Source of the DNA: a virus
IMG/VR virus record: IMGVR_UViG_3300045988_115788
Direction: 5' to 3' (one strand)
DNA length: 64,000 nucleotides
Part shown: one piece after another, positions 14,468 to 60,042 of the stretch
Layout: each line of letters begins with the position of its first letter
How positions within the stretch are numbered: position 1 is the stretch's first letter
Notes under the pieces: generated by a model
The model's input: the letters and a program-made list of their open reading frames with translations, nothing else
The model's database searches: none
What the model was told of the DNA's origin: nothing
Program-made: the position numbers and the translations under genes

Positions 14468-15348
14468 AAAGATATTGCCGCAGTAAAATGACTTAAATTC
14501 AGAGGAAACCTAAATCTTATATAGACATGGCAATTCTGAGCCAAGCTGATTTATATTATTTTATTATAGAAAGAGGTGATAATGGTGTTAGAACACAAAT
14601 GCGAAGTATGTGGTAGATTATATAGAAAAAAACTAAAAGCAGATGGGAAAATTGTATGTAATAAACATTATAAACAATTTAAAAAATATGGCAAATTTAC
14701 AGACCATTCCCCAAGAATACAAACGGACAAAAATAATATTACAATCGTTGGAGATTTAGCGTATATTGATTTATACGATAAACATTATGAAGTTATTGCA
14801 CAGGCAATAATTGACGCAGAAGATGTTAATCTTGTTAAGAATATTAAATGGAGATTGAATGGCAACGGATATGTTATGAACAATTCCTCAAAGCATACGA
14901 CATTTTTACATTCTTTGATAATGCATACTAAAGAATTAGTAGACCACAAAGATACTAATACACTAAACAACACAAAAGAAAATTTAAGAATCGCAACTAA
15001 AAGTCAAAACCAAATGAATGTAAATTATAAAGGATATTATCTGGTTAACAATAAATGGATTGTGCATATTAAGTTACATCAAAAGCAATTACATCTTGGA
15101 GTGTATTATATAGAAGAAGAGGCGCAATATGCAAGATGGTATGCGGAAAGAATTGTGTTCAAGGAATTTGCTTATCCAAAAGAAGAGCCATACATCCCAG
15201 AACATAGAAAAGCTCAAATACAAGAATATATAAATCAGAAGGTGCAGAGACTATAATAGTCACTATTGTCCTAACAATTAAAATGTATGGGAAATAGAAG
15301 GTATAGTCCACTCCCCTAATAAATATCGGGAAACCGAGGGTACAAAGG
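14468..15348 (+). mobile_element. group I intron with HNH homing-endonuclease ORF, in the nrdD glycyl-radical motif
   Basis: Splits RRTCG|YIGS. A guide GCCGCA (14477-14482) pairs with exon UUGCGGU (U.G at the splice site). R-like GCAGAGACUAUA (15244-15255) and S-like AAGGUAUAGUCC (15298-15309) are present. Ends in G (15348). Confidence 0.8.
14582..15256 (+). CDS. HNH homing endonuclease with AP2-like DNA-binding domain (intron-encoded)
   Basis: ATG 14582 follows AAGAGGTG. Motif HKDTNTLNNTKENLRIATKSQN (HNH_3 type) and an AP2-like YKGYYL..KWIVHI..LHLGVY segment. Confidence 0.75.
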   Translation: MVLEHKCEVCGRLYRKKLKADGKIVCNKHYKQFKKYGKFTDHSPRIQTDKNNITIVGDLAYIDLYDKHYEVIAQAIIDAEDVNLVKNIKWRLNGNGYVMNNSSKHTTFLHSLIMHTKELVDHKDTNTLNNTKENLRIATKSQNQMNVNYKGYYLVNNKWIVHIKLHQKQLHLGVYYIEEEAQYARWYAERIVFKEFAYPKEEPYIPEHRKAQIQEYINQKVQRL

Positions 15349-28103: not shown

Positions 28104-28131
28104 TACCCCTAGAGAATTATCTCTAGGGGTA
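28104..28131 (-). terminator. rho-independent terminator at the convergence point (U-tract on the - strand)
   Basis: Stem TACCCCTAGAG/CTCTAGGGGTA with a 6-nt loop. A-run on the + side gives TTTTTT downstream on the - strand. It lies 19 nt past the stop of the 28150-29205 gene. Confidence 0.7.
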
Positions 28132-28149
28132 AAATTATATTATGTTTTA

Positions 28150-29205
28150 TTAAACATAGAAGCAGGGGGCCACCGCATTGCAATAACGCGAGAAGTAGCC
28201 GTCCGCCGAACCATCAGCGTACACATAGCAAAAGGTGTTGGAGTCGCCGAAACACGGACTTCTGTTCCACCACCATACAGCACTGTTAGTGTTATTATAT
28301 TTATACCTAACCTTACTATTTCCATTTTTATAATAATCATACTGCTTCTGCTTATTCTGCTCTGCTGAATTAGCGTAATCTCTAGTACCATGAACTTCAA
28401 ATTCCGCTTCTAAGCAGATAGTTTCAGTTGTTGCAGTTACGTTAGAAGAATTATTAGTACCGCCACCTGTATTATCGGTATATTTTGTAACAGTTTTCAA
28501 TACGTTCTGAAGGCCAGTAGGTAGAGCATTTTTAATTGCAGACATGATTGTAGAACGCATATAACAACCTTCCCAACCACCGCTATTTGTATTACTGTCC
28601 CCATAAGACATGGAGAAATAACCAGAAGAAGTCATGGGGTATCGGCGATATTGGGAATCAACCAATCCAACAGTTTCGTTATTTACTTTACCGATGCAGA
28701 AATGAATACGATTATTCCCTTCGATTTCTGCGTTGTGATTGATGCCTAAGATATAAGCATCAATCTTTACATTACTAAAAGTAGTATTGCCTACTGTGCC
28801 ATTCAATACAATACTTTTAGTATCGCCAACACTGAATAAATTAGCCGCATCACCACTTGCGCTAACAGCACTAATCTCGGCCCAAGAATAATCGTTCAAA
28901 GTACGAAAAACTTTGTATTGCTTAAATTCTCTTACTTCAATAGTTGCCGTATTACTTCCCGCCGTAACAGTCCAAGTACCATATCCTACGTTGCCAATAG
29001 TCGCAATACCATCTTTACTTGTTGCAGATAAGGTCTTACCGCCGCTAACAGCTTGTGCAACAGTTCCCGTAGTACAGTATACTATAAATTGCGCTCCACT
29101 TGGTTCATAATCAATAATATTATCTAAAAGAATTTCAGGATACAGAATATCATACTGATTCTGTTCATTTAGATTTCTCATCGTAAATTTATATTTTCCC
29201 ATCAT
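28150..29205 (-). CDS. receptor-binding/tail-fibre protein with C-terminal DGR variable region (remote target)
   Basis: Paralog of 37627-38724, sharing long identical stretches such as IDAYILGINHNAEIEGNNRIHFCIGKVNNETVGL. The C-terminus ..WWWNRSPCFGDSNTFCYVYADGSADGYFSRYCNAVAPCFYV aligns with the TR. Confidence 0.8.
   Translation of the reverse strand: MMGKYKFTMRNLNEQNQYDILYPEILLDNIIDYEPSGAQFIVYCTTGTVAQAVSGGKTLSATSKDGIATIGNVGYGTWTVTAGSNTATIEVREFKQYKVFRTLNDYSWAEISAVSASGDAANLFSVGDTKSIVLNGTVGNTTFSNVKIDAYILGINHNAEIEGNNRIHFCIGKVNNETVGLVDSQYRRYPMTSSGYFSMSYGDSNTNSGGWEGCYMRSTIMSAIKNALPTGLQNVLKTVTKYTDNTGGGTNNSSNVTATTETICLEAEFEVHGTRDYANSAEQNKQKQYDYYKNGNSKVRYKYNNTNSAVWWWNRSPCFGDSNTFCYVYADGSADGYFSRYCNAVAPCFYV
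28165..28258 (-). repeat. DGR variable repeat VR2
   Basis: Aligns with TR 36972-37065 (offset -8807). By hand count there are 14 mismatches at TR adenines (T on the + strand) and 3 at non-adenine positions. Confidence 0.75.
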
Positions 29206-32348: not shown

Positions 32349-32427
32349 AATATCAAACTCTTTTATAAAAATATTTTTATAATTAGCTTTAAGTGAAATC
32401 TTAATCACAAAAAGCTATTTTTTAATT

Positions 32428-32628
32428 TTAAACAATCTCACCAGCATCTAGTTCAATGTTTTGGTGAGCTTTTTTATCATCATTGTGTTTATTTATAGCC
32501 ACGACAATACTGCCGCCACCACCAGAATCAATAGAATTTAATACTGGTTGACCATATCTGTTTTTAGTAATATAAAATTGCTCACTGTTCAAGAAAAAGT
32601 TACCGCCAGGAGCTTTTACTTCGGCCAT
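32428..32628 (-). CDS. small fibre-associated protein, paralog of 29202-29477
   Basis: ATG 32628 follows AAAGGTGG. Ends in ELDAGEIV. Confidence 0.5.
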   Translation of the reverse strand: MAEVKAPGGNFFLNSEQFYITKNRYGQPVLNSIDSGGGGSIVVAINKHNDDKKAHQNIELDAGEIV

Positions 32629-32718
32629 TAAAACGACCACCTTTCTTAACTCTGTACAAAGTTTTTATAGATTCTATATAAACTTAGCAAGCGGTACCTC
32701 TCGCCAAGATAATTTTCT

Positions 32719-33030
32719 TTATTCTTCTGGCGCATTTACTTTTTTAGACATAGAGCATAGGTCATCAATTAGTTTAGACACTGCCTCCATGTCAATATCA
32801 TAATTAACTTCATTAGCAGAAGCCTTAATCATAGCAAGAACATACTGTTTCTTTTCTGCACCAGATTCGTATTGCTTTTCGGCCTCTTCCATGTATTTCA
32901 TCACAAGATTCAGCACAATAGACCAATTCTTTTCTTTTACTGCTTTCTGAATATATCTTACAAGAGCAATAATAAGAGGAATAGTCGTTGCAATGCCGCT
33001 AAGAATAGAAATTACAATGTTAATATCCAT
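32719..33030 (-). CDS. holin-like membrane protein
   Basis: N-terminal TM segment (INIVISILSGIATTIPLIIALV) and a charged C-terminus. Lies adjacent to the amidase. Confidence 0.45.
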   Translation of the reverse strand: MDINIVISILSGIATTIPLIIALVRYIQKAVKEKNWSIVLNLVMKYMEEAEKQYESGAEKKQYVLAMIKASANEVNYDIDMEAVSKLIDDLCSMSKKVNAPEE

Positions 33031-33044
33031 ATATATTACCTCTT

Positions 33045-33374
33045 TTAAATAGTAGGTTCATTATAATCATTTATTTTAAACTCATTTGCTTTAGCTAAAG
33101 CATAAGAAATGCCATCGCCGTCTGCGCTTGTATTTTCATCTCTGTTTTTATCTACAATACGACTTAAAACAATACTACAAGCAGTTCCAATAGGTGTAAA
33201 TACAATAGTCCAACAATAAAGGCTACCCGTATAATCCATACCAATACACTTAATAGCTAAATAAAAGCCGCCAGCTAAACCAAATGCTAAAAATAAAAGA
33301 ATATAAACAGCTAGTCGATTTGTAAACCCTAACCGCTTAAAATGATTTCTTATTCTATGTTTTCTTTTAGCCAA
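33045..33374 (-). CDS. holin-like membrane protein (2 TM)
   Basis: Two hydrophobic segments. Lies immediately downstream of the amidase. Confidence 0.5.
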   Translation of the reverse strand: MAKRKHRIRNHFKRLGFTNRLAVYILLFLAFGLAGGFYLAIKCIGMDYTGSLYCWTIVFTPIGTACSIVLSRIVDKNRDENTSADGDGISYALAKANEFKINDYNEPTI

Positions 33375-33375
33375 C

Positions 33376-34170
33376 TTAAATCAGCCCTTTTCTCCCCATA
33401 ACCGCAATAAATTCATCACGCTTTAAGAATCCTTCAGGCGCTTCACCATTAACTAGCTTCTGTTGAGTTGCTTTATTCCAATGCCCTTCTTGCTTAGACC
33501 AATCAGGTTCAGGCTTAGAAGCAACGTATTGAGAAGCCTTTTGTAACAGTGTATATGCCTGTTCAGGAGTCATTTCTTTAATGAAAGTATTTATATCCAT
33601 GTCTTCTTCAACCTCCTCTACGGGCTTTGTAGTGGCCTGTAAACGCTTATTTACTTCTGCCGCAATCTCACCATATTTACTGAACAAATAATTACCAGGA
33701 CAAGACTTGTCTGGCCTAGTGTATCTATGTGGCACCATATTGCATGCCGCCCAATTACCTGTAAAAGCTGGACAATATTGCTTTCCTTCTTTCCAAATAA
33801 GCTTCTTGATGCCATTACGTTTACAAATATCCACACATAAATTGATTAGAGCAACGTATGCTTTTTTAGTACATTCATAAGGTTCTTTATAACTTTGAAT
33901 ACTAGATACTTCAATAGTAACTACTTCATGGTCTACTTTATGGCTTGTACACCAAGCACGATTTTCTTCAAGAACATATTGACCAATTCTACCATCTGGC
34001 CCAATACCATAATGAGAAGAAGCTTTTCTTTGTTGAAAAACTTGTCCACAACCTTCAACAGAACCAGGCCCCGCCATAGTATGAATACTGATGCCCTTAA
34101 TCCGGCCTTGTCTAGGCTTTGTACAATGAGGTGATAGTTTAGTATAATTTACTAATTTACTTTGAGACAT
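33376..34170 (-). CDS. N-acetylmuramoyl-L-alanine amidase (endolysin, Amidase_2/PGRP type)
   Basis: GISIHTMAG...SSHYGIGPDGRIGQYVLEENRAWC...VVTIEVS motif pattern. ATG 34170 preferred (MSQSKLVNY). Confidence 0.7.
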   Translation of the reverse strand: MSQSKLVNYTKLSPHCTKPRQGRIKGISIHTMAGPGSVEGCGQVFQQRKASSHYGIGPDGRIGQYVLEENRAWCTSHKVDHEVVTIEVSSIQSYKEPYECTKKAYVALINLCVDICKRNGIKKLIWKEGKQYCPAFTGNWAACNMVPHRYTRPDKSCPGNYLFSKYGEIAAEVNKRLQATTKPVEEVEEDMDINTFIKEMTPEQAYTLLQKASQYVASKPEPDWSKQEGHWNKATQQKLVNGEAPEGFLKRDEFIAVMGRKGLI

Positions 34171-34840
34171 TAAAAGCACCATCCAACTTATTAACAATAT
34201 TATTCATTTGTTCTTGTGCGGCAGTAAGCATCTCATTCATTTTAGCCTTAAAAGTATCATTTAGTTCTTCGCCATATTGTACACCATACACCTTATTAGG
34301 TTCAGTATAAGTTTTCATTTGAGCTTTTAACATGTTGAAATAAGTGGTATGATAAGTAACGTGTGTCTTATAAGCCATATATAGTTCAGTAATAGATTTT
34401 GCATCCATTACAGCACATTCTTCACCATCTGCATGATAAGGGAAAGAATTTGCACCAAGAACAATGGAATTAAACATAGAATCAATATTAGTTTGGTCGG
34501 CGGCAGTTAGAGAATAATGCTTGCCATTATAATCAATACCATCAATAATAGTTTTATTGCAAATGGCAGAAAGTTCAACACATTTCTTATCCATTGCTTC
34601 ACCCAAATAGTCAAATTTAGGCAGTTGTTTAAGAGTTTCTTCATCTACTTCTCGAATTTCTACACTTTCAGGACAGCCAATTCCGTTAGTACCTAAAATA
34701 TTATAAGCAACAGACATAAACGCAACGCCCTTTGGATTGCTGGATTTATCTTGCCCATAACATCCATTGTCTTGTAGCTTAATATAATTTAGTTCATCAG
34801 TAGTACCTATTACCAAATTATTTCGGATAATTGCATACAT
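34157..34840 (-). CDS. DUF4376-like fibre partner protein (possible fibre chaperone), paralog of 38743-39363 and 41585-42181
   Basis: Shared block ...GKHYSLTAADQTNIDSMFNSIVLGANSFPYHADGEECAVMDAKSI..Y..THVTYHTTYFN. Confidence 0.55.
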   Translation of the reverse strand: MYAIIRNNLVIGTTDELNYIKLQDNGCYGQDKSSNPKGVAFMSVAYNILGTNGIGCPESVEIREVDEETLKQLPKFDYLGEAMDKKCVELSAICNKTIIDGIDYNGKHYSLTAADQTNIDSMFNSIVLGANSFPYHADGEECAVMDAKSITELYMAYKTHVTYHTTYFNMLKAQMKTYTEPNKVYGVQYGEELNDTFKAKMNEMLTAAQEQMNNIVNKLDGAFNVSK

Positions 34841-34862
34841 TAAATAAACCAGTCCTTTCCGA

Positions 34863-35300
34863 TTAAATTTTTTGACAAATTGTCAAAATACGTTCTAGTT
34901 CTTCGATAGGTGCTTCATAAAAATCTTTACTCCACACCCAAAAGTCACTATGTTCTGCGCGGCGATATTTAGTTAAAGATTCATCTTCCCATAGTAAATT
35001 CCAACGCTCTTGATGCTTCTTTTGATTAAAGGCCCTGTCTTTGTTAAGACGTTTTAGAATCTTGTCAATTAGTTCGCCACGAAGAAGTCCTTTGTTGTCG
35101 TTATTGATTGCAAAATAATCATAAGCATTTTGAGATGTATTGTAACATAGCGGCCCATTTTCGTTTGAAATAAGACCATTAGTTTCTGTACAAAGCGTTG
35201 CATAAGGCAGATTAACCATGCCTTGAAGTGCTTTTTGATTAAATCTCTTTTTTACAATATAATTATTTTTCATTTTATTCCTTTCTAATTTGCGGCTCAT
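34863..35300 (-). CDS. hypothetical protein immediately downstream of the DGR RT
   Basis: 145-aa ORF overlapping the RT stop by 26 nt (alternative ATG at 35273). No recognisable motif. Confidence 0.45.
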   Translation of the reverse strand: MSRKLERNKMKNNYIVKKRFNQKALQGMVNLPYATLCTETNGLISNENGPLCYNTSQNAYDYFAINNDNKGLLRGELIDKILKRLNKDRAFNQKKHQERWNLLWEDESLTKYRRAEHSDFWVWSKDFYEAPIEELERILTICQKI

Positions 35301-36681
35301 TTAAAATATCGTGTATTTTATCAAAGATGTCCATAGGCTTAGATTTCATTTTAGCAAGATAATCTTTTCGTTCGCAAAGAGGTATGAATCCATTATACAT
35401 CATCGACTCAATTTTCTTTGATTGAAGGTCAAGAAAAATCTTTAATTGTTTTTTAGAACAATAATAGACCCAACCACAATAATCATTCCAAACATATTTG
35501 ATATAACATTTAAAAGGTTTATTTTGTTGACTCAAATATTGAATGAAAGTAGATACAAACTTTTTATCCATATTATATATGGTTCGATAGCAACCAAAAT
35601 GTTTTGCATAGCCTCTCCAACATTGGTATGTTACACAAATATCATCTATTGACATTTTTCCCTCGTCAGCCCATTTCTTGAAAATTTTTAATTTTCTTCT
35701 AATTCTTTTAAGACTATCTTTATTCAATTTTGTTACGATTTTTCCACTATCTGTCAAAGTAAATCTAATTTTCAAAAAAGTAAAACTATGGTGCTTAAAA
35801 GGAGTTATGCGATTTTTCTTTTCGTTTATTTTTATGCCAACAGAATTGGCTAATATTTCAACAAAATTTTTTATCTCTTTTAGTTCTTCAAAAGAATTGC
35901 TGATTACATAACCATCATCCATATATCTGCCATAACCTTTTATGCGAAAAACATCTTTAATGTAATGGTCTATAAGATTAGCATAATCTAAAGCAATATT
36001 TTGTGATATTGGACTGCCTAATCCAACTCCAAATGGCCCCTTAGAATCATGTAAAGTAAGAAATTCATCAATAAATTTATCTCCAAGAACAATCAACTGT
36101 CTATCTTTTATATATTTTCTTAATTCCATTTTTGCACCTTCATGCGGAATTGAAGCAAAATATTTAGAAAAATCATATTGATAAATGCCTCCTTTATAAC
36201 CATACTTTCTATAATGATGCCGCAGTTGCTTTTTTAGCATCTGTATGGCAAAGTGGATACCTTTATTTTTCAACGAAGCTGAATTAGTTGAAACAAAACT
36301 TTTAGAATAAGCTTCTGTCATTATTTCGTTGCAAAAACACTTTTGAACCGCTCTATCTTCAATATTCAAAGCATGTATGTCTCTTATTTTTCCATGCTCA
36401 TTTGTTTTAAAGAAGCAAAAGCCATGAAATTTATAGGCATTAGCATCCATCTTTTTCTTTAATTCAAAAGACCTTATTAACAATTCATTTTCAAAATTTT
36501 GTACTGAAGTTTTCCATCTAACTCCTTTACAACATTCTTTTGATGCTCTATATAAATTTTCAAAAGAATAAACTTCATCATAACTTTTATTTACTATATT
36601 TCTTTTCTTTAAATCTCTTTTTGCTTTACGCCTTAAATATCTTTTCTCATGGCGCTCTTTACTTGTCAGAATTTTCACCAC
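35275..36681 (-). CDS. DGR reverse transcriptase
   Basis: 468 aa. RT motifs YQYDFSKYFASIPH (A), GVGLGSPISQNIA (the [I/L]GxxxSQ hallmark of DGR RTs) and GRYMDDGYVIS (YxDD). Lies adjacent to the TR and avd. Confidence 0.9.
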   Translation of the reverse strand: MVKILTSKERHEKRYLRRKAKRDLKKRNIVNKSYDEVYSFENLYRASKECCKGVRWKTSVQNFENELLIRSFELKKKMDANAYKFHGFCFFKTNEHGKIRDIHALNIEDRAVQKCFCNEIMTEAYSKSFVSTNSASLKNKGIHFAIQMLKKQLRHHYRKYGYKGGIYQYDFSKYFASIPHEGAKMELRKYIKDRQLIVLGDKFIDEFLTLHDSKGPFGVGLGSPISQNIALDYANLIDHYIKDVFRIKGYGRYMDDGYVISNSFEELKEIKNFVEILANSVGIKINEKKNRITPFKHHSFTFLKIRFTLTDSGKIVTKLNKDSLKRIRRKLKIFKKWADEGKMSIDDICVTYQCWRGYAKHFGCYRTIYNMDKKFVSTFIQYLSQQNKPFKCYIKYVWNDYCGWVYYCSKKQLKIFLDLQSKKIESMMYNGFIPLCERKDYLAKMKSKPMDIFDKIHDILNEPQIRKE

Positions 36682-36971
36682 TTTTTATTTTAATTTTTTC
36701 GTATAATTTTTAGTTTTGTTAAAAACTAAGATAATTTGCTAATTACATAACTGGTACCTATGAAATTTGTCTAAAATTATCAAACAACAAACCATGCAAG
36801 AAGCGTCCAGGACACAGTATCGAAAAAATAATTTAGGATGCCAAAGCAGAGCCAAGGATATTTCCCCCTTCTATGAAAAGATTATTTTCACCTAGCAAAA
36901 ACTAGGTTACTTCTCAATCCCAGTAGCCATCTATAACCAAAAAATGGCGGCTACTATTGGCATAGAATCAG

Positions 36972-37065
36972 GGGGGCCACCGCATTGCAATTCCGCGAGT
37001 TGTTGTTGTTCGCCGAACCATCAGTGTTCACATTGCAGAAGTTGTTGGAGTTGTCGGAATACGGA
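36972..37065 (-). repeat. DGR template repeat (TR)
   Basis: About 94 nt between avd and the RT. The - strand sense is AAC-rich (..AACAACAACAAC..). By hand count it has 26 adenines. It aligns with VR1 and VR2. Confidence 0.85.
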
Positions 37066-37092
37066 AACGGGAAATACCCTATTTTTTATTTA

Positions 37093-37551
37093 TTATTCTT
37101 TTAATTCATTTTGATACTTTTTATATCTTTTCTTTGTGTCTTGTATTACACCCGAAATCAATTTCCTTTCGGTTGTTATTAAATCTACCCAATCTTGAAA
37201 AATATTATTTGCCTGCTCTTTCGTCCCAAGAAAATTATTTCCTTCTCTTATATATTCATATACGGTTGAAACCATAAAAGTTAAAGCATAAATTTTAGAC
37301 CTTGCAATATATAAATGAGATAATCTTTTTTCATACTCTTCTTGAGACATGGTTTTACTTATATAATAAGAATTTGCTTGAAAAACACTAAGACTAATAT
37401 CTCGTGTCAAATTATATAAATCTTGATACATATTAAATTTATAAGATTTTGGAAACTTTTTAGATAATTTTATAGTAAAAATAAAAAGTTTCTTTGCTGT
37501 AGTTAAAAACTCCGCTTTAGAAGGATTTCTTTGTGCTTTATATACAGACAT
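37093..37551 (-). CDS. avd: DGR accessory variability determinant (Avd-like four-helix-bundle protein)
   Basis: 152-aa basic helical protein located between the target gene and the TR, which is the canonical avd position. Confidence 0.7.
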   Translation of the reverse strand: MSVYKAQRNPSKAEFLTTAKKLFIFTIKLSKKFPKSYKFNMYQDLYNLTRDISLSVFQANSYYISKTMSQEEYEKRLSHLYIARSKIYALTFMVSTVYEYIREGNNFLGTKEQANNIFQDWVDLITTERKLISGVIQDTKKRYKKYQNELKE

Positions 37552-37583
37552 ATTTTATTAAATTCCTTTTCTTCTTGATGTAT

Positions 37584-37611
37584 GCCCTGCCACGCTTGCG
37601 CGAAGCAGGGC
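37584..37611 (-). promoter_or_regulatory. GC-rich hairpin 15 nt downstream of the VR1 gene stop (candidate DGR retrohoming hairpin)
   Basis: GCCCTGC (37584-37590) pairs with GCAGGGC (37605-37611). No U-tract follows on the - strand. Confidence 0.4.
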
Positions 37612-37626
37612 TTTGGATTTTACAGA

Positions 37627-38724
37627 TTAAACATAGAAGCAGGGGGCCACCGCATCGCAATACCGCGAGTTGGTGCCGGACGCCGAACCACCAGTGTGCA
37701 CAAAGCAGAAGTAGCCGGAGTTGCCGGAATACGGACTCCTGTTCCACCAATATACAGCACTGTTAGTGTTATTATATTCATATCTAACTTTACTATTCCC
37801 GTTTTTATAATAGTCATACTGTTGTTGTTTGTTTTGTTCATAACTATTAGCGTATTTTCTAGTACCATGAACCTCAAATTCTGCTTCAAGACAAATTGTT
37901 TCAGTTGTTGCAGTTACATAAGAAGAGTTGCTACCACCGCCGCCACCTGTATTATCAGTATACTTCGTAACTGTCTTTAACACATTTTGAAGGTCAGTAG
38001 GTAAAACATCTTTAATTGCAGGAATAATTGTAGAACGCATATAACAACCTTCCCAACCTCCAACATTTGTATCGCTATCACCATAAGACATAGAGAAATA
38101 ACCAGAAGAAGTTATTGGATATTGTTCATATTTGGAATCAATTAGTCCAACAGTTTCGTTATTAACCTTGCCAATACAAAAGTGAATACGATTATTCCCT
38201 TCGATTTCTGCATTGTGGTTAATACCTAAGATATAAGCATCAATAGATAAATTAGAAAACGTAGTATTACCTACTTGCCCGTTAATAATAATCGTTTTTG
38301 TATCCCCTACATTCCAATAATTAGAAGCTTCTCCACTTGCGCTAATTTCACTAATAATGTTCCACGAATTATCATTAAGTGTAGCACTAACAACAGTAAA
38401 AGATATTTCATAAATCTTTAAAGCGTCTATTGTTATGTTTTGCGTTTTAGTAGTCCCTGAGATATTAGTAGAAACTAAATATTCTCCATATTGAAGATTA
38501 TCAAAAGTAGCAATGCCAGTTGTGTTAGTTACAGCTGTTGCGGTTTTAGCCCCACTTAAATTTACAACCTGTCCTGCTGCTCCACCGACAATAGCTACAT
38601 CAATTCTTGCTCCTCCTAAATTTTCCAAGTCTTTTATATTTTCTTTCACCGTGTTGGGATACAGTATATCATAACTATTAGAAGCTTCATTATACTCTCG
38701 CATAGTGATTAGATATTCTGCCAT
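37627..38724 (-). CDS. receptor-binding/tail-fibre protein, primary DGR target
   Basis: 365 aa. The C-terminus ..VYWWNRSPYSGNSGYFCFVHTGGSASGTNSRYCDAVAPCFYV corresponds to TR-encoded PYSDNSNNFCNVNTDGSANNNNSRNCNAVAP. Shares the N-terminal MAEY..T..N....YD.LYP motif with the other RBPs. Confidence 0.85.
   Translation of the reverse strand: MAEYLITMREYNEASNSYDILYPNTVKENIKDLENLGGARIDVAIVGGAAGQVVNLSGAKTATAVTNTTGIATFDNLQYGEYLVSTNISGTTKTQNITIDALKIYEISFTVVSATLNDNSWNIISEISASGEASNYWNVGDTKTIIINGQVGNTTFSNLSIDAYILGINHNAEIEGNNRIHFCIGKVNNETVGLIDSKYEQYPITSSGYFSMSYGDSDTNVGGWEGCYMRSTIIPAIKDVLPTDLQNVLKTVTKYTDNTGGGGGSNSSYVTATTETICLEAEFEVHGTRKYANSYEQNKQQQYDYYKNGNSKVRYEYNNTNSAVYWWNRSPYSGNSGYFCFVHTGGSASGTNSRYCDAVAPCFYV
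37642..37735 (-). repeat. DGR variable repeat VR1
   Basis: Aligns with the TR at offset +670. All 15 hand-counted mismatches are at TR adenine positions. Confidence 0.85.
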
Positions 38725-38742
38725 TGCACAACCTCCTTATTG

Positions 38743-39363
38743 TTATTTTTCTTCCATTTTTATTTTCAAAATTTTTTCCATATTTTCTTTTAAATCATCA
38801 GGAAGTTCAATCCCATAATAAATTGACTTTAATTCTTTCATCTTGTTACATCTTTTAATCCAAGACATAAGATGATTGCAATAAGTCAAATGATAAAGTT
38901 TATGTTGAACAAAAGCATTACTAATTAACTTGATATTATTAGCACTATATAGTTCGCATAATTCACCATCAGCATGATAAGGATATTCTTTCATTCCATT
39001 ATTAACAGCATCTAATGCAGTTGCAATATTGATTTGGTCTGTTTCTTCCATAGAAAAATGTTTAACAGTTTCATTTTCTAATGTTACGTCGCAACCAGTA
39101 ACAATAGCTTTACTACATTTATCAGAAACTTCTTCTAATTTTTGATTTCTTAAAGGAGAAATATCAATATTAAATACTGAAACAGGAATTAGTTTTTTAA
39201 CAATATTATTTTCATCTAGTTCAATATTGACGAAAGGAAAAGTAGAAGGAATTTCAATTTCATCTGGGATTAAAGCATAACCTTCTGGCGGCGATATTTC
39301 TATTTCAGTTACAAAATTCTCATGCGCCCCATTGATATATTCTTCTATTTTAATGTATCTCAT
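38743..39363 (-). CDS. DUF4376-like fibre partner protein (paralog)
   Basis: ATG 39363 gives MRYIKIEEY.... Shared block ...HFSMEETDQINIATALDAVNNGMKEYPYHADGELCELYSANNI. The tool start at 39447 lies in the tnpB 3' flank. Confidence 0.55.
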   Translation of the reverse strand: MRYIKIEEYINGAHENFVTEIEISPPEGYALIPDEIEIPSTFPFVNIELDENNIVKKLIPVSVFNIDISPLRNQKLEEVSDKCSKAIVTGCDVTLENETVKHFSMEETDQINIATALDAVNNGMKEYPYHADGELCELYSANNIKLISNAFVQHKLYHLTYCNHLMSWIKRCNKMKELKSIYYGIELPDDLKENMEKILKIKMEEK

Positions 39364-40752
39364 AACAAAACACCCCTTATTGAACCTCACATAGTTAAAG
39401 TCACATGATTCTTGAGAACTCTTTTCCATTGAAAAGATATTTATCAAGCTATCCCGACCGTTCCTGCCGTTCTTTTTTGTATTTGCTAGACTACTTCAAG
39501 TATCCGTATTCCTTCGTTTAAAATATTTATTGCCGCATTTATGTCTCTATCAAGATGAGTATTACAACAAGGACAAACCCATTCTCTAACTTTGAGATTT
39601 TTTGTTTCTTTATTGACATATCCACACACATTGCAAATTTGAGAGCTTGCAAAAAACTTACCTACTTTGACAACTTGTTTACCATACCAATTAGCTTTAT
39701 ATTCCAATTCTCTAACAAACTCAGACCATGATGCATCTGCTATAGACATCGCAAGTTTGTGATTTTTAATCATATTTGACACTTGTAAATCCTCTAAACA
39801 GATTATATCATTATTTCTAATAATTTTAGTAGACAACTTTTGTAAGAAGTCTTTTCTCTGATTCGCAATATGCTCTTGAAGTCTTGCCACTTTAATTCTT
39901 GCTTTATTGCAATTTGAGCCGCCTTTTGATTTTCGAGACAGTTCTTTTTGTAACTTAACAAGTTTATCTAAAGACTTTTTGAAATATTTAGGATTTGCAA
40001 TCATTTCTCCATTAGACATTATACAAAATTCTTTAATTCCTAAATCAATACCAACCGATTTTTCAGTCTTTTCTAATGGTTCCATATTAACATCAGTACA
40101 ACAAAGTGACACATAATATTTTCCACTGGGTACTTGTGACACAGTTGCGTTAAGTATCCTACCTTGTGGTACCAACTTATTTTTCGTTTTTACCATTCCA
40201 AGTTTAGGTAATTTAATGTGCTTATTACAGTATTGAATATTTCCATTAGTGCATTTTGACTTATAAGAATATCTATGAATTTTCTTTGACTTGAATTTTG
40301 GATACCCACTGCGTTCCTTAAAAAAATTCTGATATGCAGAATCCAAATCTTTGAGTGAAGACTGAAGAGCAGTGGAGTCAACCTCTTTAAGCCATTGTAA
40401 TTCTGTTTTAAGATTTTTCATATCGTTTGCACACTGCGCATACGAAAAAGATTTTTTTGATTCTTCATATATTTTAATTCTCTTTGCAAGGTATACATTG
40501 TATATAAATCTACAACATCCAAATGTCTTTGCTATTAACTCTTTTTGTTTCTTATTCGGATAAATCCTGTACTTATAGGCTTTTTCCACTATCTTCACCT
40601 CACTTTATTTGGCACACCAAACCACATGATATTGAATTGCATATAACATATCCTCGACCATGAGTTACTTCCATGATATGTCATCTCATGTGCGTATTTT
40701 CTGTTTTTGCGACGATTTATCTCACCACTGAAGTGACAAGTGTTCTCGCCTT
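39364..40752 (-). mobile_element. IS200/IS605-family TnpB-only element (approximate boundaries)
   Basis: Consists of tnpB, an about 155-nt 5' flank with the imperfect palindrome ACATATC (40646-40652)/GATATGT (40675-40681), and an about 120-nt 3' non-coding flank. No tnpA is present. It interrupts an RBP/partner gene pair. Confidence 0.6.
39486..40598 (-). CDS. tnpB: TnpB (RNA-guided RuvC-like nuclease, IS605 OrfB family)
   Basis: 370 aa. N-terminal [12 protein letters not shown] signature, VGIDLGIK (RuvC-I), CLEDLQV (RuvC-II), CNVCG..CPCC zinc finger and [10 protein letters not shown] (RuvC-III). Confidence 0.85.
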
Positions 40753-40753
40753 A

Positions 40754-41581
40754 TCAATAAAAGATAATGTACCAATAATCGCACAGGGAAGAATTGCATC
40801 TATCTCTAGTCAGATAATTACCTGTGGTTGAAAATTCGATAGATATGTTTGATGTGTTCCAAGTTATATCTGAAAAACTTGTGTTTACAGATTCAGAAGC
40901 ACCGTAAAATAGCTTAACTTCGCTTTGAAGAGAAGTGACAAAAAACAAACATTCACTCGTGCCGCCAGAATCACTGCCATAAATTAAAAACCTGGCTCGT
41001 GCAGAAGTAGGAATTTCTATAGCGTCAGAATTGGTGCCTTTTCTTGTACCTAATGCAGTAGTGCCTTTTAGCCCCTCCAAATCAGTATAGTCAACAGAAA
41101 CATAATCTGCCGCAATCCAAAAACTACCATTATACATCAATCTTAAAGGACGGTTTGCTGACATCCAACTAACATTTCTAAAATCTTTTATAGAAGTTAA
41201 AGATGTCCCTAAAGCTCGTTCAATATACTTATTACCCAAGCCATTAACATTAAGATATGGGTCAACCCTTTTACTTACTGTGTTAGGCATTATAGTAAGC
41301 ATTGCGCCCTTTGTTAAACTTGTGATATGAGAAGCGGTGCAAGTGTATGTTAATCCATCTGAACTTGTTGCTACAATCGGAGTAAGTTCAGGCGTGGTTC
41401 CACTACTGCCGCCACCATGCTCGTAAGCCGCTTTAAGAGCATCATTCACATTAACTGTGCCACTCAGTCCTAAATCTGTTGCAATTTCACTTACATCAAC
41501 TTGTTCACCTTTGGTTGCTGGATATAATTGGTCATATCCTGTATTTGTTTTATTTTCTATTGTAAAATTATATTCTGCCAT
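40754..41581 (-). CDS. receptor-binding protein paralog (non-DGR)
   Basis: N-terminus MAEYNFTIENKTNTGYDQLYPATKGEQVDVS is nearly identical to that of 42174-42980. The C-terminal domains differ. Confidence 0.55.
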   Translation of the reverse strand: MAEYNFTIENKTNTGYDQLYPATKGEQVDVSEIATDLGLSGTVNVNDALKAAYEHGGGSSGTTPELTPIVATSSDGLTYTCTASHITSLTKGAMLTIMPNTVSKRVDPYLNVNGLGNKYIERALGTSLTSIKDFRNVSWMSANRPLRLMYNGSFWIAADYVSVDYTDLEGLKGTTALGTRKGTNSDAIEIPTSARARFLIYGSDSGGTSECLFFVTSLQSEVKLFYGASESVNTSFSDITWNTSNISIEFSTTGNYLTRDRCNSSLCDYWYIIFY

Positions 41582-48854: not shown

Positions 48855-51800
48855 TTATCTTCTCTTATAAGCTCTTTGGTTCGCAATATTGATTACTGCT
48901 TTCACAAAATCTTCAGCGTCATTTCCATTTTTAACATTGGGGAAAGACATTTGAACTCCGTTCATACTTATTCCACTTTGAGTATTGTTTACCAAGCTTT
49001 TTAATACCGAATCAGGAGTTAAAGCGCCCCAAGCAAACAAATTGCGAGTTAAATCATTAGGTATGACGCCATCACCAGAACCTAATACACCCAATTCTGG
49101 GCCGTTTTCTCCTAGAAGACTTAATCCAGGATTGGTATTTTTTTCAGTTCCTTTTTCGTATTTTCCAACACCTGCAACAGTATAAATGTTACCATTTTGA
49201 TTAACTGTGACTGAACCATCATTGTTTTTAGTCCAATAAGAGCCATCGCCGCCAGTCAATGTAGCGTAAGCTTTAGCGTTCTCAATAAAGTCTATACCTT
49301 TTTGAGAGGTGATATTATACGCTCCGCCAGAAGAATTATAACCAGTATATCGTTTTGTTTGACTACCGCCAGTACTTTGACCTGGTTGACTTATTGGTTT
49401 CTCAATTAGTTCAGACTCATAAGTACCGTCAGACTTTACTTTAGTAATTTTATAAGTGCCGCCAGCAGTAGTAACCCTGTCGCCAACTTTAAGCCCTCTG
49501 GGAGCTTTACCGTCATTTCCTACAGAAACCGTAGTTCCTTTAGATTCAGACCAGCTCACATCGGAAGGCGCAGGGTCATATCTAGCACCAGTTCCTTCAT
49601 AATCTTTATTAGTAATGTTATTTACTAACTCAGACTCGTAAGTGCCGTCATTTTTAACCTTGGTTATTCTGTAAGTTCCACCGGCAGTAACAACATTGTC
49701 GCCAACCTTTAAGCCGCTAGGAGCATTACCATTTTTACCTACTTGATAAGTTCTTCCGCTAGATTCAGTTTTAGGTGTTTCTGTAGCGCTAGAAACTTTG
49801 TCGTAAGTGCCGCCACGAGAAGCGTATTCTTTTCGAGTTTCGCTACTGATTTTTTTGGATTCATAAGTTCCGTCTTCATTAACCTTAATGATTTGGAACG
49901 TCCCGCCATCAGTAACTACCTTGTCACCAATTTTAAGCCCCTTGGGAGCTTTCCCATCTTTGCCCGCTTCATAAGTGCCAGAACCAAAGATTTCACCCTT
50001 GTCAATACGCTCTTGCATATTTTGGGCATCTTTAAGCTGTCTCATATATTCTTTATACTCAGAAACAAAATTAGAAAGATTTCTAATACGAGTATCCCAA
50101 TTCATCTTTTCAGAATTTATACCAAATTCTTGTTCGATAATTAGACGATTCTGTTCTTCTTGATAATCATCAACAACATTTTCCCACTCGTTTTTATACT
50201 CTTCCCATTTATTTATCTGTTCTTCAATATTTTTGACAGCTTCATCTTTTAGCTTTTCAAGACGGTCTTTCTCATCTTCTAGTGCTTTTTCACGTTCATA
50301 GCTTTCAAGATTTTTCTGCGCTTCACTAATTTCATCTATATCATCCGCATATTGGAATCTACCATCTTTGTAGACATAAACTTTCTTTTGTCGCGCTTTC
50401 GCTAGTTCATCTTGAAGCTCTTGTAACTTGATATTGTCTTCAATTTTATCGTTCTCTTCTTCAAGAGCTTTTATTTTTTCGTCGTAATAATCTTCCCAAT
50501 AATCTTTTTCTTCATTGAGGTCATCAATACGACGCTGTGCATCTTTAGCTACTTGCTCAAAAAGAAGTTCATACTTTTCTGTTTTGTTTTGAAGACCTTC
50601 TTCAAGCTCTTCATAATAGTTTTGCCATTCTTCTTTAGCCTTTTCTGCCGCTTCCGTTGCGGCATCAGCAATAGATTGAAATAGGTCTTGTGCATCGCCC
50701 TCAAGACTCCACCAACTGCTTTGAATTTCCCGAATAATAGTATCATTTTCATTGATACCCAATTTACGATAATATTCAGCTTGTTTGTGAAGTTCGGCTT
50801 GCATCGCTCTAATCTGAGCAATCTGCTCTTCTTCTGTTGCGCCATTCTTTTGCATTAGGAACAATCTATGTTCCATAATGTCAATTTGTTCAGAATAGAG
50901 TTTGTTTTGCTCTTCTAATTGCTTAGTAAAAGCTTCTGTGCGCTTATTTTGTGCATCAATAACAGCTTGAGCTAAACCTGCTCCAGAGCCAATCTTTTTG
51001 CTGATTTCTTTCGCTTGCTTCTCAAGGTCAGACTTCTTTAAATCAGAATAAGACCCCTTGGCGGTTTCGTATTGTTTAGTAACAGATTTAGTCCAATCAG
51101 CATAAGCATTGTTTACTTTTGGCAATTCAGGCTGTTTATTTTTATCAAAATCGCCCCAATGAGTCTTTTCAGAAGTAGACAATTTGCTAAGTAACTGGCG
51201 TGTAGTATCATTGTTATATACCTCTGCACCAGAAGGAAGTTTAACAATTTCTGGGCCTTCTTCACCAACAAGAATAGTACCTTCTTTAGTAACCGTACCA
51301 CCCGTAGCCATGCCGTGGATTGTATCTATATATTGAGCATTAGAAAGAGCGCCACTCCCAGCAGAAGCCGCTCCAGACGCAGAAGCTTTTAGATTTCTTA
51401 ATGCTGCTGCCGCCGCATTAGCTTTACCAACAATAGCAGTCAGGCTAGAAGATAAACCACTTACATTTAAAGTAAGATTACCAACACTTCTTGCAGATGC
51501 CGCAAAGCTTCTTAGTGCCGCACTTGCACTATTCGCCGCAGTTGCTACTTTTCTTAAAGCGCCAGAAGTTCTATTTGCTGGCCCAGCAACTTTACCCACA
51601 GCAGAAGACGCTTTAGAAGCACTAGAAGAAATTCTACTTAAAGTAGCACCGCAGCTAGACGCAGAAGTAGCTAGACTAGCGACTCCTGCACTGGCAGAAC
51701 TTGCCGCGCCCGAAACAATACTGAGAGAGGTAGATAGTAATGCGCCACTCCCTGCCGCAGAAGACAGGTTACTTGCAATAGAACTAATATTGACAGACGC

Positions 51801-54800
51801 TTGAGACGCCGCCATACTAACGCTATTCATGCTGCCAGCAATAGTTAGCATACTAGATGCCGCATTGCTTAGAGAAGCTGTAGCGGTTGTTACATTAGCC
51901 GCAAAAGTACCTAATGCAGTCCCCGCATTTCCAGAAGCAGTCCCTAGACTATTCATGTGAGTGACAGATTGACTAGACTGCGTAGTAAGAGTGATTAGTG
52001 CGGATGCCGCATTGTGAGCGCCGTCAGTGATGCCAGACATAGCATTGGAGGCACTTGTTGCAATAGAAGATAGAGAAGTATCTACTGTTGTTGCGCTAGT
52101 GCTAAGATTGGTCATGCTTTCGCTTACTTGACTGACAAGAGTATTTACTTGGACAAGCGTTCCTTTGACTCCAATAAGAGAGCCACTAACAGCAGTCAAG
52201 CTACTTGACGCATTAGAAAAAGCTTGTGCTAATCTTTGTCCTGCGTCACCTGCCGCTTGACCAAAATCAGCGATACTACTTGCCATTTTACTTGCAACAG
52301 TATTGATACTATTGAAAGTTTCAGTAACGCCAGCAGTTTGAGATTTTAAATTTGCAAAACCGCTAGAAAGTCCTGTTGCGCTATCATGAGCACCATCTAA
52401 CGCCGCTTTAATATTGTCTCTTAATACTTGACACTGTTGAGCCACTTCTACAACAGCATCACCAACAGACCTTATATTATCAACAGTGGTTTGAATAGAC
52501 GTAGCCATACTAGAGAAATTGCTACTAACAGAAGTAGACATGTTTCCTAGTCCCTGATTCACAGTACCAATAGCAGTAGAAATTTCTACAATCCGTCCTG
52601 CAAAATCAGTAAAATTAGAAGAAAGAGTTGCGGCATCTCCTGCAAATTTGCTAAACGAATCTCCCAGCCCATCAATCAATCCTGAATATTTTTCAATACC
52701 AGAAGAAAATACGTCAAAAGATTCAGCAATATTGTTTAGGCCACTCGTATCAACTTGAGCAGATTCAACAATTCTTTGATTAGCTTCTTCAAACTTTTCT
52801 GCTGCTTTAATTGCTTCTTCACCTATTGTTTTATAAGCATCGGAAGCACCTGCAACATCTACAGTTTGAACACCTTCATCAACAGCATCATTTACCGCTT
52901 GTTGGGCTTCACCAACCTGCTTCGCACCCTCTTTAGCATTTTCGCCAAGTTGTTTGTAGCTGGTTCCAGCAGCTTCCATTCCTCCGACAGCGCCAGATAA
53001 CAATTCACTAGCACTGCCAAACATTTTGCCGCCCTTTTCTGCTGTTTTGCCGCCTTCTTCTACACCTTTGCCGCTTTCTTTTGCCGCTTCGCCAAAATTA
53101 AATCCTTCGCCTCTCATGCCTGGGCCAACAAGTTGTTTGTTATTGATAATATCAATCCACTCAACCCACATTTTGGCAACAGTATCGCCATCTTCAGCCG
53201 CTTTTCTTGCTTGGTCAACAAGACTCTTCATCGCGTCGGTTTCAAAAACCTTGGGGTCAATTTTGCCGCCTTCCATAATGGTTTTCATTACATCGACCCA
53301 TTGTTTTGCGGCTTCATCTCCCTCTGCGGCAGATTTTTGTAATTGTTCACTAAATTGAAGCGCGCCATCACCATTTATATCAAACTTGGCTTCGTTAAGC
53401 TTGTCAATAACAGAAAGAATTTTTTGTGCGTATTCGTCACCGTTATCTGCGGCTTTCCTAAGATTATCTATCCAAGGGCCAAAAGCATCATCTTTAAGAT
53501 TAACAAAATCTATTTCGCCAGACGCAATTCCTTTAATGATTTCCATTAACTTCTTTGCGCCTTCATCCGTTGATTCAGCAAGAGTTTTGCCAAATCCTTC
53601 TGCAAAATTGGAAGAATCAGTTAAGGTTTTTGCTAACTCTCTAGTTTTGTTATCTATTTTAGAAATTTCATCGGCACTTTTCTTGGTTTCTTCAGCTGTA
53701 TTTGCATACGCCTCTGCCAACAATTTTTCTGCTTGTTCTTTGGACTTCGTGACGCCTAAACTTTCTAGCAAAGTGGCTAGACGGTCTTTATCCATATTTG
53801 CAAGTTGCGCTTCATTCATTTGGGTCAGCAAATAATCTTTGGCAATTTGTGTCATTGCCTCATCATATTTTTCTGCTGTCACCGAACCATCTTCAAACAT
53901 TTGTTGAAGGTCTGTAAGCCCCTCAGAAACAAAACCAGAAGCAGATAGAGAATTAACAGTATTAAGAACAGTTGTTAGTTCTTCATCAGTAGATTTTCCT
54001 TTTTCGCCAACACCTTGCATAGCATCAGCGAACCCTTGCAAAGCATCTTTCGCTGAATTTACAGCAGTGACTTGTTGAGCGTTAGTAATCTCACCATAAG
54101 CTTGAAGTTCAAAATCTGGGTCAAGTTCTCGCAAATATTTATACATATCTGCGTGTTTTTGTGTCCACTCATCCCCAGAAGAAACGGCTTCTTGTAACTG
54201 TTCTTCGTATTTTAATAAGGTGGCACTTAAATCATCTACTTGTTTATTAACATCTTCAATATTCCACTGACCACCAAGCAAACCAGCTACGCCATCTTTT
54301 TTCATAGTGATTTGCCCTGTTTGTAACATTTGCTTTTGGACTTCTTGTAACTCTTTTAAATCTTTTAAATCTTCTTTGTAGCTAGGGGTAGAAACACTTT
54401 CTAGTGGCCCTTTGCCTGTGTTCGCACCTACATAGGTGTGAACTCTGCCTTCTTCATCTGTCCATTTTTGTGAAGTATCTTCGCCAGGTGTTTCATCACC
54501 AAACATTTCTACGTTACGAATTTTTTCTTGAACTTCGTCAAGCTGTCCTTCAAAGTCCTTTAAGCGCTGTTGCCAAATTTGAACAAATCTTGGGTCTGCA
54601 CCAGACTCTTGCAACCGTTGAATTTCTGATTGACAAGTAGATATATTATCTTCTAGTTCTTCAGCAGAAGCATTAAGCTTTCCTAAAGGAGACTCTGCTT
54701 TAGTTATGTCATAAGCTTGTTTAATAAGAACTATTAGAGCGGCAATAGCAATAGACAAAGGTAAAGCGGCTTCACCAAGGGAGGAAAAGAAGCCAGATAC

Positions 54801-55766: not shown

Positions 55767-56146
55767 CATTATTAACTAAATTAAATGTTTTTCAACATTT
55801 CTAGTTTCTGACTATATCTTCACTATTTCGTTAAATAGTGTCAGTGCGCTTCGGATTGCTCCTACTCTACTCGCTTCGTCCGCTTATGCGTCTTATTCTG
55901 CCCATACTATAACACAGACAGTTACATTTATCAAGAATTTTTTCTTGATTGCTTTCGATAGTCGATGAAGGTTATACCGTATTTCAACGGCATCTTCCCT
56001 GCGGATTAACCATATATTTTTATCTCTTTTACAATCTCTTAGTTAATTACTCTAAGCCCCTATCTATGTTACCATGATAAGTTTGTGTATAAAACTTTAG
56101 GTTGTCCCCGTCAATTCACACTGAACAGGCGCTAACTTTAGAGTCC
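55767..56146 (-). mobile_element. group I intron (ORF-less) in the tape measure gene
   Basis: 380 nt lie between ..FLNVQAG and ANQSQNL... The 5' exon GCAGGU pairs with guide GCCUGU (+ 56125-56130), giving a U.G pair. Q AAUCCGCAGG (+ 55998-56009), R-like CACUGACACUAU (+ 55836-55847) and S AAGAUAUAGUC (+ 55810-55820) are present. Ends in G. Confidence 0.8.
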
Positions 56147-60033: not shown

Positions 60034-60042
60034 AACAAACAC

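Follow-up and report, generated by a model that had tools for sequence, protein, structure and literature searches.

Diversity-generating retroelements (DGRs) constitute the principal known source of targeted protein hypervariation among phages, and gut viromes are rich in them. The prototype is the mtd-avd-TR-brt element carried by Bordetella phage BPP-1. Its ribonucleoprotein contains a duplex, termed 'cPRT Stop', that encloses the template repeat (TR) and that its authors also predict in DGRs of Bacillota, and stem-loops just downstream of the TR bind the accessory protein Avd (bioRxiv 10.1101/2023.10.23.563531). The reverse transcriptases (RTs) of the DGR clade carry the signature [I/V/L]GxxxSQ, whereas group II and retroviral RTs have QGxxxSP (PMC3521204; bioRxiv 10.1101/2020.04.29.068544). 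Proteins ending in a DUF6273 domain that holds the variable repeat (VR) at its C-terminus are a described type of DGR target, with a reported C-type-lectin fold, and pairs of targets served by a single TR have been described for the DUF6273 DGRs of Faecalibacterium and gut phages (PMC10743442, PMC11792537). The present analysis concerns IMG/VR virus record IMGVR_UViG_3300045988_115788, a stretch of 64,000 nt referred to below as the window, whose minus strand carries a locus of this class. It is very probably an intact, recently active DGR of a gut phage of about 100-125 kb, lying in the tail-fibre region and serving two paralogous tail proteins; the related contigs are viral contigs of 75-130 kb. 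DGRs being well known and very common among gut phages, such a locus will not surprise a specialist and one further example changes little. What is added here to an earlier reading of the sequence alone is a remote second target, a spacer RNA of the Rfam family RT-2 with a covarying helix that brackets the TR, and comparative evidence of recent activity.

The core of the element, given as coordinates of the window, consists of the following features.

37627-38724, minus strand: target gene 1 (365 aa), which ends in VR1
37632-37735, minus strand: VR1, at the 3' end of target 1, comprising codons 331-361 of 365 and an invariant 3' part
37093-37551, minus strand: Avd-like accessory gene (152 aa), between target 1 and the TR
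36961-37065, minus strand: TR, AAC-rich, non-coding and intergenic, 280 nt upstream of the RT
35275-36681, minus strand: DGR RT (468 aa), with LGSPISQ (motif 4) and YMDD (motif 5)

The sequence-only reading had placed the target, the small open reading frame (ORF), the TR and the RT at these positions with an offset of 670 between the repeats, all of which is reproduced by ORF calls, a repeat search and an independent script. The last two return a single ungapped direct repeat of 94 nt (36972-37065 versus 37642-37735, spacing 670) with 84% identity. Every one of its 15 mismatches falls at an adenine of the TR on the transcribed strand and none at C, G or T, exactly as had been counted by hand, and 15 of the 26 TR adenines are used in this way. 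The changes comprise seven A>G, five A>T and three A>C, and all of them occupy codon position 1 or 2 in the target frame. Fifteen differences placed at random would all land on A with a probability of 8e-11. Allowing a 1-nt gap (an extra C in the TR) lengthens the homology by 11 nt, to 36961/37632, the TR thus measuring 94 nt ungapped and 105 nt with the indel; the gapped extension brings a sixteenth mismatch, also A>C, so that 16 of 16 lie at adenines. Realignment in search of non-adenine mismatches finds none in VR1.

The sense strand of the TR is AAC-rich and translates in the target frame as PYSDNSNNFCNVNTDGSANNNNSRNCNAVAP, in agreement with the first reading. The claim that the two repeats end differently, in the manner of an IMH/IMH* pair (initiation of mutagenic homing), is likewise borne out: the VR has GGCCCCCTGCTT at its 3' boundary, the TR has GGCCCCCCTGAT, and the 3' end of the TR, GGCCCCCCTGATTCTATG, is IMH*-like. 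The boundary A/C difference lies in the codon of Cys362 (TGC). This residue is invariant in 40 natural alleles of target 1 (83-90% identity), which are free of pattern bias because they were retrieved by protein similarity, and the TR has A there; the position therefore acts as a VR-specific boundary (IMH versus IMH*) and not as a mutable site. The GC run at the 3' end of the TR (36966-36971) varies in length among relatives. Six C are present in GGCCCCCC in the TRs of the window and of a close relative, L001 (IMGVR_UViG_3300039378_000062), and five, as in the VRs, in the TRs of two others, L163 and L170 (the latter IMGVR_UViG_3300045988_133080). With five C, the target frame continues with a TGA codon.

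The RT translation includes GLGSPISQ and RYMDDG and matches Pfam RVT_1 (4e-14) and PHROG 1423 (1e-72); L221, G222, S223 and Q227 are invariant among 33 homologues. The best match to a solved structure is the 328-aa RT of entries 8ub7-8ube (E 3e-14), which carries IGSLTSQ. Although the entry is named only 'Reverse transcriptase', we take this protein to be the Bordetella bRT from its length, its motif and the entry series. In a protein-mode search the nearest RT among GenBank phages is that of Roseburia phage Shimadzu (39% identity). Further relatives occur in the Faecalibacterium phages Pioen, Roos and Taranis and in phage nd12 (32-34% identity for Pioen, Roos and nd12) and, more distantly, in Bacteroides, crAss-like and Bordetella phages. 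Shimadzu, Pioen, Roos, Taranis, nd12 and the Bordetella phages are known DGR phages. At the nucleotide level, a megablast of 34800-39500 against 50,697 GenBank phage records gives no match. The motifs, the best structural match and the company of DGR phages bear out the earlier assignment, and on these grounds the RT is taken to belong to the DGR clade.

An alternative is that the locus is no DGR at all, the RT being that of a group II intron, a retron or a defence system and the repeat an ordinary partial duplication of the 3' end of a tail gene. It can appeal to the NCBIfam scan of the RT, where no DGR RT model is among the matches and the best of them is the group II intron RT/maturase TIGR04416 (3e-22), followed by the retron St85 model NF038233 and by Drt3a. 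Those scores lie far below the model cut-offs, however, at 79 versus 300 bits, 30.5 versus 235 and 30 versus 200, respectively. Motif 4 reads LGxxxSQ and not QGxxxSP, an Rfam scan of the locus detects no group II intron and no retron RNA, RT-2 being the sole family, and an ordinary duplication would not confine all 15 differences to a single base of one strand. With HMM (hidden Markov model) scores under cut-off, no intron or retron RNA and an SQ motif, the group II intron, retron and defence-RT readings were rejected, as the sequence-only reading would have predicted, and the alternative as a whole is extremely improbable.

Homologues of the RT behave as expected of DGRs. The RT family, taken as 161 loci and the window, belongs mostly to Oscillospiraceae and other gut Clostridia, and 124 of its 162 sequences yield adenine-biased TR/VR pairs when scanned by self-BLAST. 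Across these pairs 1971 of 2050 mismatches (96%) are at A, a share that partly reflects the filter because pairs were pre-selected for at least 75% of mismatches at A.

Natural variation points to recent activity of the element. L001 shares 98% identity with the window over 5.3 kb (32409-37718) and has the very same TR. Of the 102 differences between the two, 13 lie in the 77 nt of VR1 that L001 covers (16.9%), all at TR-A sites; elsewhere divergence is 0.65-3.2% in other genes and 0 in the TR. In the 40 target-1 alleles the 11 asparagine codons of the TR (AAC/AAT) show entropies of 2.6-3.3 bits and the Asp, Tyr and Thr codons 1.8-2.1 bits. Among the TR codons that lack A at position 1 or 2, 13 of 14 do not exceed 0.5 bit, the remaining one being Ser347 at 0.98. 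The mean is 1.44 bits in the VR and 0.27 elsewhere in target 1. The adenine-restricted variation that the sequence-only reading had suggested looking for is thus present in natural alleles, both as 13 of 13 TR-A differences in L001 and as an entropy peak at A-containing codons, and these comparisons support the view that the element was active recently.

Several relatives carry decayed versions of the locus. In L162 (an ERZ1026882 contig) avd, TR and RT are deleted (window 35329-37610), so that the downstream flank of VR1 abuts the last ~50 nt of the RT gene, and non-A sites of the VR show heavy divergence. In L170 the RT is missing (window 35380-36841) but avd and the TR remain, and 7 of the 23 VR mismatches are at non-adenine positions. 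A hybrid repeat is found in L166 (NFYZ01004836.1, 13259-13368): avd lies upstream of it, the 58 nt at its 5' end match the TR exactly, adenines included, and its 3' part has A>N changes, a VR-type end and the downstream flank of a second variable repeat, VR2, which is described below. Either TR x VR2 recombination with loss of 8.8 kb or chimeric assembly through the 58-nt identical stretch may have produced it; as a chimera is at least as likely, DGR-driven recombination at this junction was dropped from consideration.

The decay seen in L170 and L162, together with the extra C in the 3' GC run of the window TR, could be taken to mean that the DGR was once active and is now a fossil whose adenine pattern is historical. 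This is improbable, since the RT ORF is of full length and retains every residue that is invariant in the family, VR1 has no non-A mismatch, and L001, with the same extra C and an identical TR, nevertheless differs at 13 TR-A positions in VR1. The last observation indicates that diversification continued in this very lineage. The preferred reading of an intact, recently active element is retained.

The four-part anatomy of target with VR, avd, TR and RT proposed from the sequence alone is correct as far as it goes; it recognised one target only. A second target, with its own VR, lies at a distance, and a GC-rich hairpin follows each VR (37611-37584 and 28131-28104).

28150-29205, minus strand: target gene 2 (351 aa), paralogous to target 1, in the tail-fibre/lysis block at its far end
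28155-28258, minus strand: VR2 (94-nt ungapped part 28165-28258), at the 3' end of target 2 in the place equivalent to VR1
37584-37611, minus strand: GC-rich inverted repeat GCCCTGC...GCAGGGC, ~20 nt downstream of VR1
28104-28131, minus strand: 12-bp perfect hairpin CCCCTAGAGATA/TCTCTAGGGG followed by a T-run, downstream of VR2

A search of the window with the TR pattern, its adenines replaced by N, returns three sites (the TR, VR1 and 28204-28258) with none expected by chance. Target 2 is 67% identical to target 1 at the amino acid level, and VR2 lies 8,807 nt from the TR. Compared with the TR, VR2 has 17 mismatches in 94 nt, of which 14 are at A and three are not (C>T, C>T and G>T; P 2e-7). 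VR1 and VR2 end alike, both with GGCCCCCTGCTTCTATGTTTAAT on the 3' side where the TR has GGCCCCCCTGATTCTATGCC, and their identity continues for 23 nt beyond the variable part. At non-adenine columns VR1 and VR2 differ in 3 of 68 positions (4.4%), against 13-25% per 60-column block in the neighbouring 3' half of the target 1/target 2 alignment. The low non-A divergence and the identical 3' ends argue for repeated overwriting of VR2 from the TR after the two genes diverged.

The hairpin after VR1 has a DNA fold of -13.7 kcal/mol (z -2.3) and that after VR2 one of -15.8 kcal/mol (z -7.5). A hairpin is known downstream of the IMH of BPP-1, and 37584-37611 matches it in position. This inverted repeat is a candidate target-site hairpin or cruciform and a candidate transcription terminator.

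It is conceivable, if rather unlikely, that the DGR is real with VR1 as its sole live target, and that VR2 is a relic in a duplicated tail-protein gene to which cDNA is no longer delivered. VR2 does have three non-adenine mismatches to the TR where VR1 has none, it lies 8.8 kb away beyond the lysis genes, and one of its non-A differences, C28T, recurs in other alleles, consistent with ordinary drift. These features have to be set against the 3' end that VR2 has in common with VR1 for 23 nt past the variable part and the strong hairpin that follows. They have also to be set against the contrast of 3 of 68 non-A columns with 13-25% per block nearby, which argues for repeated homogenisation from the TR. 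Nor is the distance unusual: a second VR lies 6-10 kb from the TR in 10 of the 162 RT-family sequences, the window included, and in the nine other loci between 15 of 19 and 21 of 21 mismatches are at A. The evidence as a whole favours a DGR that serves both targets.

The RNA around the TR contains elements that can be compared with those of the BPP-1 ribonucleoprotein.

36674-36924, minus strand: RT-2 RNA (Rfam RF03077), which fills the spacer between TR and RT and runs into the RT start codon
37069-37080, minus strand: 5' arm of a predicted duplex, AGGGTATTTCCC, just 5' of the TR, pairing with 36855-36866
36855-36866, minus strand: 3' arm of the duplex, GGGAAATATCCT, within a stretch that is unpaired in the Rfam RT-2 model
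36922-36955, minus strand: hairpin AGTAGCC...GGCTACT, immediately 3' of the TR, predicted by folding

The match to RT-2 scores 93.4 bits (E 3.5e-20), where the gathering score is 40, and spans model positions 1-222 of 222. The family lies between a TR and a DGR RT in 19 of 21 sequences, namely the window and 18 of 20 loci. When the RT-associated RNA motifs were described by Weinberg et al. in 2017, only RT-10 was assigned to a DGR (that of BPP-1) and a DGR role of other RT motifs was speculated (PMC5737381); no paper linking RT-2 to DGRs was found in the searchable literature.

Folds of the region from the 3' end of avd through the TR and RT-2 predict a 12-bp duplex that brackets the TR (37080-37069 with 36866-36855), in both the minimum free energy and the centroid structure. 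The whole-region fold is no more stable than that of shuffled sequence (z -1.2), so that thermodynamic stability alone is no evidence here. Cognate partners of the helix pair at -26.0 kcal/mol and non-cognate ones at -23.0 kcal/mol, a difference that is significant but weak. Because whole 170-nt GC-rich partners give strong spurious duplexes, the energy test was replaced by a count of covariation in an alignment of 56 RT-family loci, comprising 34 nt upstream of the TR and 36 nt around a conserved AAGGAG box and anchored without reference to pairing. In this alignment 88.5% of the duplex cells are paired, compared with 67.8% in shuffles and 38-54% when the arms are slid. Compensatory changes occur in 11 of the 12 pairs (8.3 of 12 in shuffles), and the covariation score of 0.62, against a control of 0.24, is reached by none of 500 shuffles. 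By analogy of position, the TR-bracketing duplex appears to be the counterpart of the BPP-1 'cPRT Stop' duplex. The hairpin at 36922-36955 would, on the same model, be an Avd-binding stem-loop.

A broader proposal is that the orphan family RT-2 is the template-flanking RNA of a whole lineage of Clostridia-phage DGRs. In this lineage, RT-2 would be larger than the BPP-1 spacer (RT-10) and unrelated to it in sequence. Its conserved purine box and a variable segment would pair, across the TR, with sequence directly on the 5' side of the TR. Its 3' end would enter the RT start codon, and translation of the RT may be coupled to folding of the template RNA. Taken jointly with its pairing and its RT coupling, we give this proposal even chances. 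If true, DGR ribonucleoproteins use more than one RNA scaffold.

The small ORF between target 1 and the TR matches PHROG 3206, 'Avd protein of DGR', at 2e-4, and the NCBIfam model DivGenRetAVD at E 0.039 (14.3 bits, cut-off 80). Members of its family match PF22296 bAvd weakly in 13 of 20 cases, and searches of the Protein Data Bank (PDB) by sequence, with a single sequence and with a profile, give chance matches only. An AlphaFold2 (AF2) model shows four helices with a mean confidence (pLDDT) of 87. The top PDB folds for this model are 2gsc and 2rld, with target-normalised TM scores of 0.76-0.79; we take both to be four-helix-bundle proteins of the 23S-rRNA-IVP/S23 family, structural relatives of Avd. 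The predicted fold and the weak HMM matches together suggest an Avd-like four-helix bundle. The earlier label of avd-like thus holds for size, position and four-helix fold and does not hold for a family match at curated thresholds (14.3 versus 80 bits).

Target 1 has a putative adaptor of ~30 aa at its N-terminus, next a beta-sandwich of prealbumin/CnaB-like type and, at its C-terminus, a DUF6273 domain that ends in VR1. The DUF6273 match (Pfam, 4e-9, 36.9 bits versus a cut-off of 23.5) covers residues 215-365, and the domain is matched in all 62 target-1 homologues. Other profile matches are Pfam SpaA (5e-5) and PHROG 37900 (2e-85). In an AF2 model built from the 62-sequence alignment the N-terminal domain is confident and resembles CnaB/pilin folds, and a Foldseek search with the model matched this domain only. 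A sequence-based profile search of the C-terminal part against the PDB gives no match, and a relaxed Pfam scan of it detects nothing besides DUF6273. An ORF of 275 aa at 40754-41581 on the minus strand begins with ~28 residues (MAEY..T....N...YD.LYP) common to both DGR targets (13 of 30 identical, E 0.004) and has no other similarity to them beyond the N-terminus. This N-terminus may be a common virion-attachment adaptor.

A mechanism can be proposed on the pattern of BPP-1. A transcript containing the end of avd, the TR and RT-2 would fold such that the 12-bp duplex (37080-37069 with 36866-36855) closes off the TR. The RT and the Avd-like four-helix-bundle protein would then copy the TR into cDNA, misincorporating opposite template adenines, and the cDNA would replace the homologous VR at the 3' end of a target gene. 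Directionality would come from the 3' end specific to the VR, GGCCCCCTGCTTCTATG, where the TR has GGCCCCCCTGATTCTATG, and perhaps also from the hairpin after each VR. In each target ~13 codons of the C-terminal DUF6273 domain (TR codons AAC, AAT, GAC, GAT, TAT and ACT) would be randomised, presumably retuning receptor binding. Cis-priming, a complex of Avd, RT and RNA, the homing mechanism and a role in receptor binding are all taken over from the Bordetella model and would apply here by analogy.

Several points weigh against the reading of the locus as an intact, recently active DGR with two targets. The support for cDNA synthesis and retrohoming is wholly comparative. In the AF2 model of target 1, pLDDT is below 50 for residues 185-361, which makes the VR-bearing C-terminal domain unreliable and leaves a lectin-like fold with the VR exposed at its surface putative. 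The Avd-like protein stays under curated sequence thresholds (14 versus 80 bits in NCBIfam) and has no sequence match in the PDB. The window TR has one C more in its GC-rich 3' end than its relatives L163 and L170. The three non-adenine mismatches of VR2 may mean that its refreshing is rare or has ended. Finally, loss of the RT or of the entire cassette has occurred in some close relatives, and the element is therefore dispensable. The adenine-only VR1 mismatches, the RT motif, the RT relatives and the natural alleles nonetheless uphold the earlier interpretation as a DGR with an adenine-directed signature.

On the minus strand the element is preceded by the tape-measure gene (48855-55769), tail proteins and three DUF4376 tail-fibre-like genes, and it is followed by endolysin and holin-like ORFs, a 559-aa tail-fibre-like gene and target 2. 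The lysis cassette (32719-34197, minus strand) consists of the endolysin gene (33376-34197) and two small holin-like membrane ORFs. Since these lie between tail-fibre-like genes, the cassette is nested in the tail-fibre/DGR block and does not mark the end of the structural module. The description of the element as embedded in the receptor-binding module is borne out in that it sits between tail-fibre-like genes, with the correction that it directly adjoins lysis genes inside the same block. An ORF of 145 aa (34863-35300, minus strand), which matches PHROG 29409 of unknown function (1.7e-34), overlaps the RT stop codon by 26 nt; it is kept in relatives without the RT and is therefore probably not part of the DGR.

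Other mobile or RNA-containing elements occur in the window. A TnpB ORF (39486-40598, minus strand; Pfam OrfB_IS605, Cas12f1-like TNB and HTH_OrfB) occupies a block, 39380-40757, that is absent from L163 and L170, where the flanks join 39379 to 40758. The block looks like a recent IS200/605-type insertion between tail-fibre genes, adjoining the DGR target. An IscB-like protein (58738-60042, minus strand; Pfam RRXRR, 7e-61) is encoded directly downstream of a full-length HEARO RNA (60097-60307, 152 bits), and 58738-60307 on the minus strand is an IscB/omega-RNA element within the phage structural region. A DNA polymerase III alpha-like gene (2519-6403) is closely preceded by a RAGATH-18 RNA on the plus strand (2395-2467, 67.6 bits). 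Also on the plus strand, the anaerobic ribonucleotide reductase gene nrdD (12072-14491) is split into two ORFs with a gap of 263 nt. The first (12072-13280) covers profile positions 1-264 and the second (13544-14491) positions 264-541 and the glycyl-radical domain. No Rfam family, group I introns included, matches the gap at E<=1.

Among described systems, the Rfam entry RT-2 (RF03077) agrees with the locus in two respects, the full-length match and the position immediately upstream of an RT gene that its description gives. Here, in addition, the RNA is located between a verified TR and a DGR RT, and a segment that is unpaired in the model pairs with sequence upstream of the TR. The locus thereby ties an uncharacterised RNA family to DGR function, a useful but incremental gain, and this link together with the covarying TR-enclosing helix supports the idea that the architecture of the BPP-1 ribonucleoprotein generalises.

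The DGRs of Faecalibacterium and gut phages (Roos, Pioen, Lelie, CP11 and the metagenomic nd4 and nd12) have, like the present one, a VR at the C-terminus of DUF6273, and these phages and that of the window are all gut Clostridia phages. They differ in the nature of the target pair, which is made up of tentaclin and a small DUF6273 protein in the described phages and of close paralogues with a prealbumin-like N-terminal domain here. The second VR here is 8.8 kb off, across the lysis cassette, and the RT identity is low. The locus is a clean natural case of one TR with two paralogous tail proteins 8.8 kb apart, and the relatives that lack the RT or the cassette make it easy to compare how VRs evolve in the presence and in the absence of the element. 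It also adds evidence for DUF6273 proteins as receptor-binding tips in phages of Oscillospiraceae and other Clostridia.

In the BPP-1 DGR, too, the target gene, whose VR is at its 3' end, is followed by a small accessory gene for a four-helix protein, then by the non-coding TR, a structured spacer RNA and the RT. Both elements show adenine-only substitutions, an RT with the [I/V/L]GxxxSQ motif, GC-rich VR and TR 3' ends that differ, a hairpin after the VR, and a duplex between sequences upstream and downstream of the TR ('cPRT Stop', bioRxiv 10.1101/2023.10.23.563531). In contrast to BPP-1, the RT is of 468 aa and not 328 aa, with distant similarity, and the spacer RNA is RT-2 (~250 nt) and not RT-10/Sp (140 nt). 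The target is a DUF6273 protein and not Mtd, there are two targets, one of them remote, and the Avd-like protein is too divergent for curated thresholds. In target type the locus is thus closest to the DGRs of Faecalibacterium phages and of nd4 and nd12, and in mechanism it is closest to that of BPP-1.

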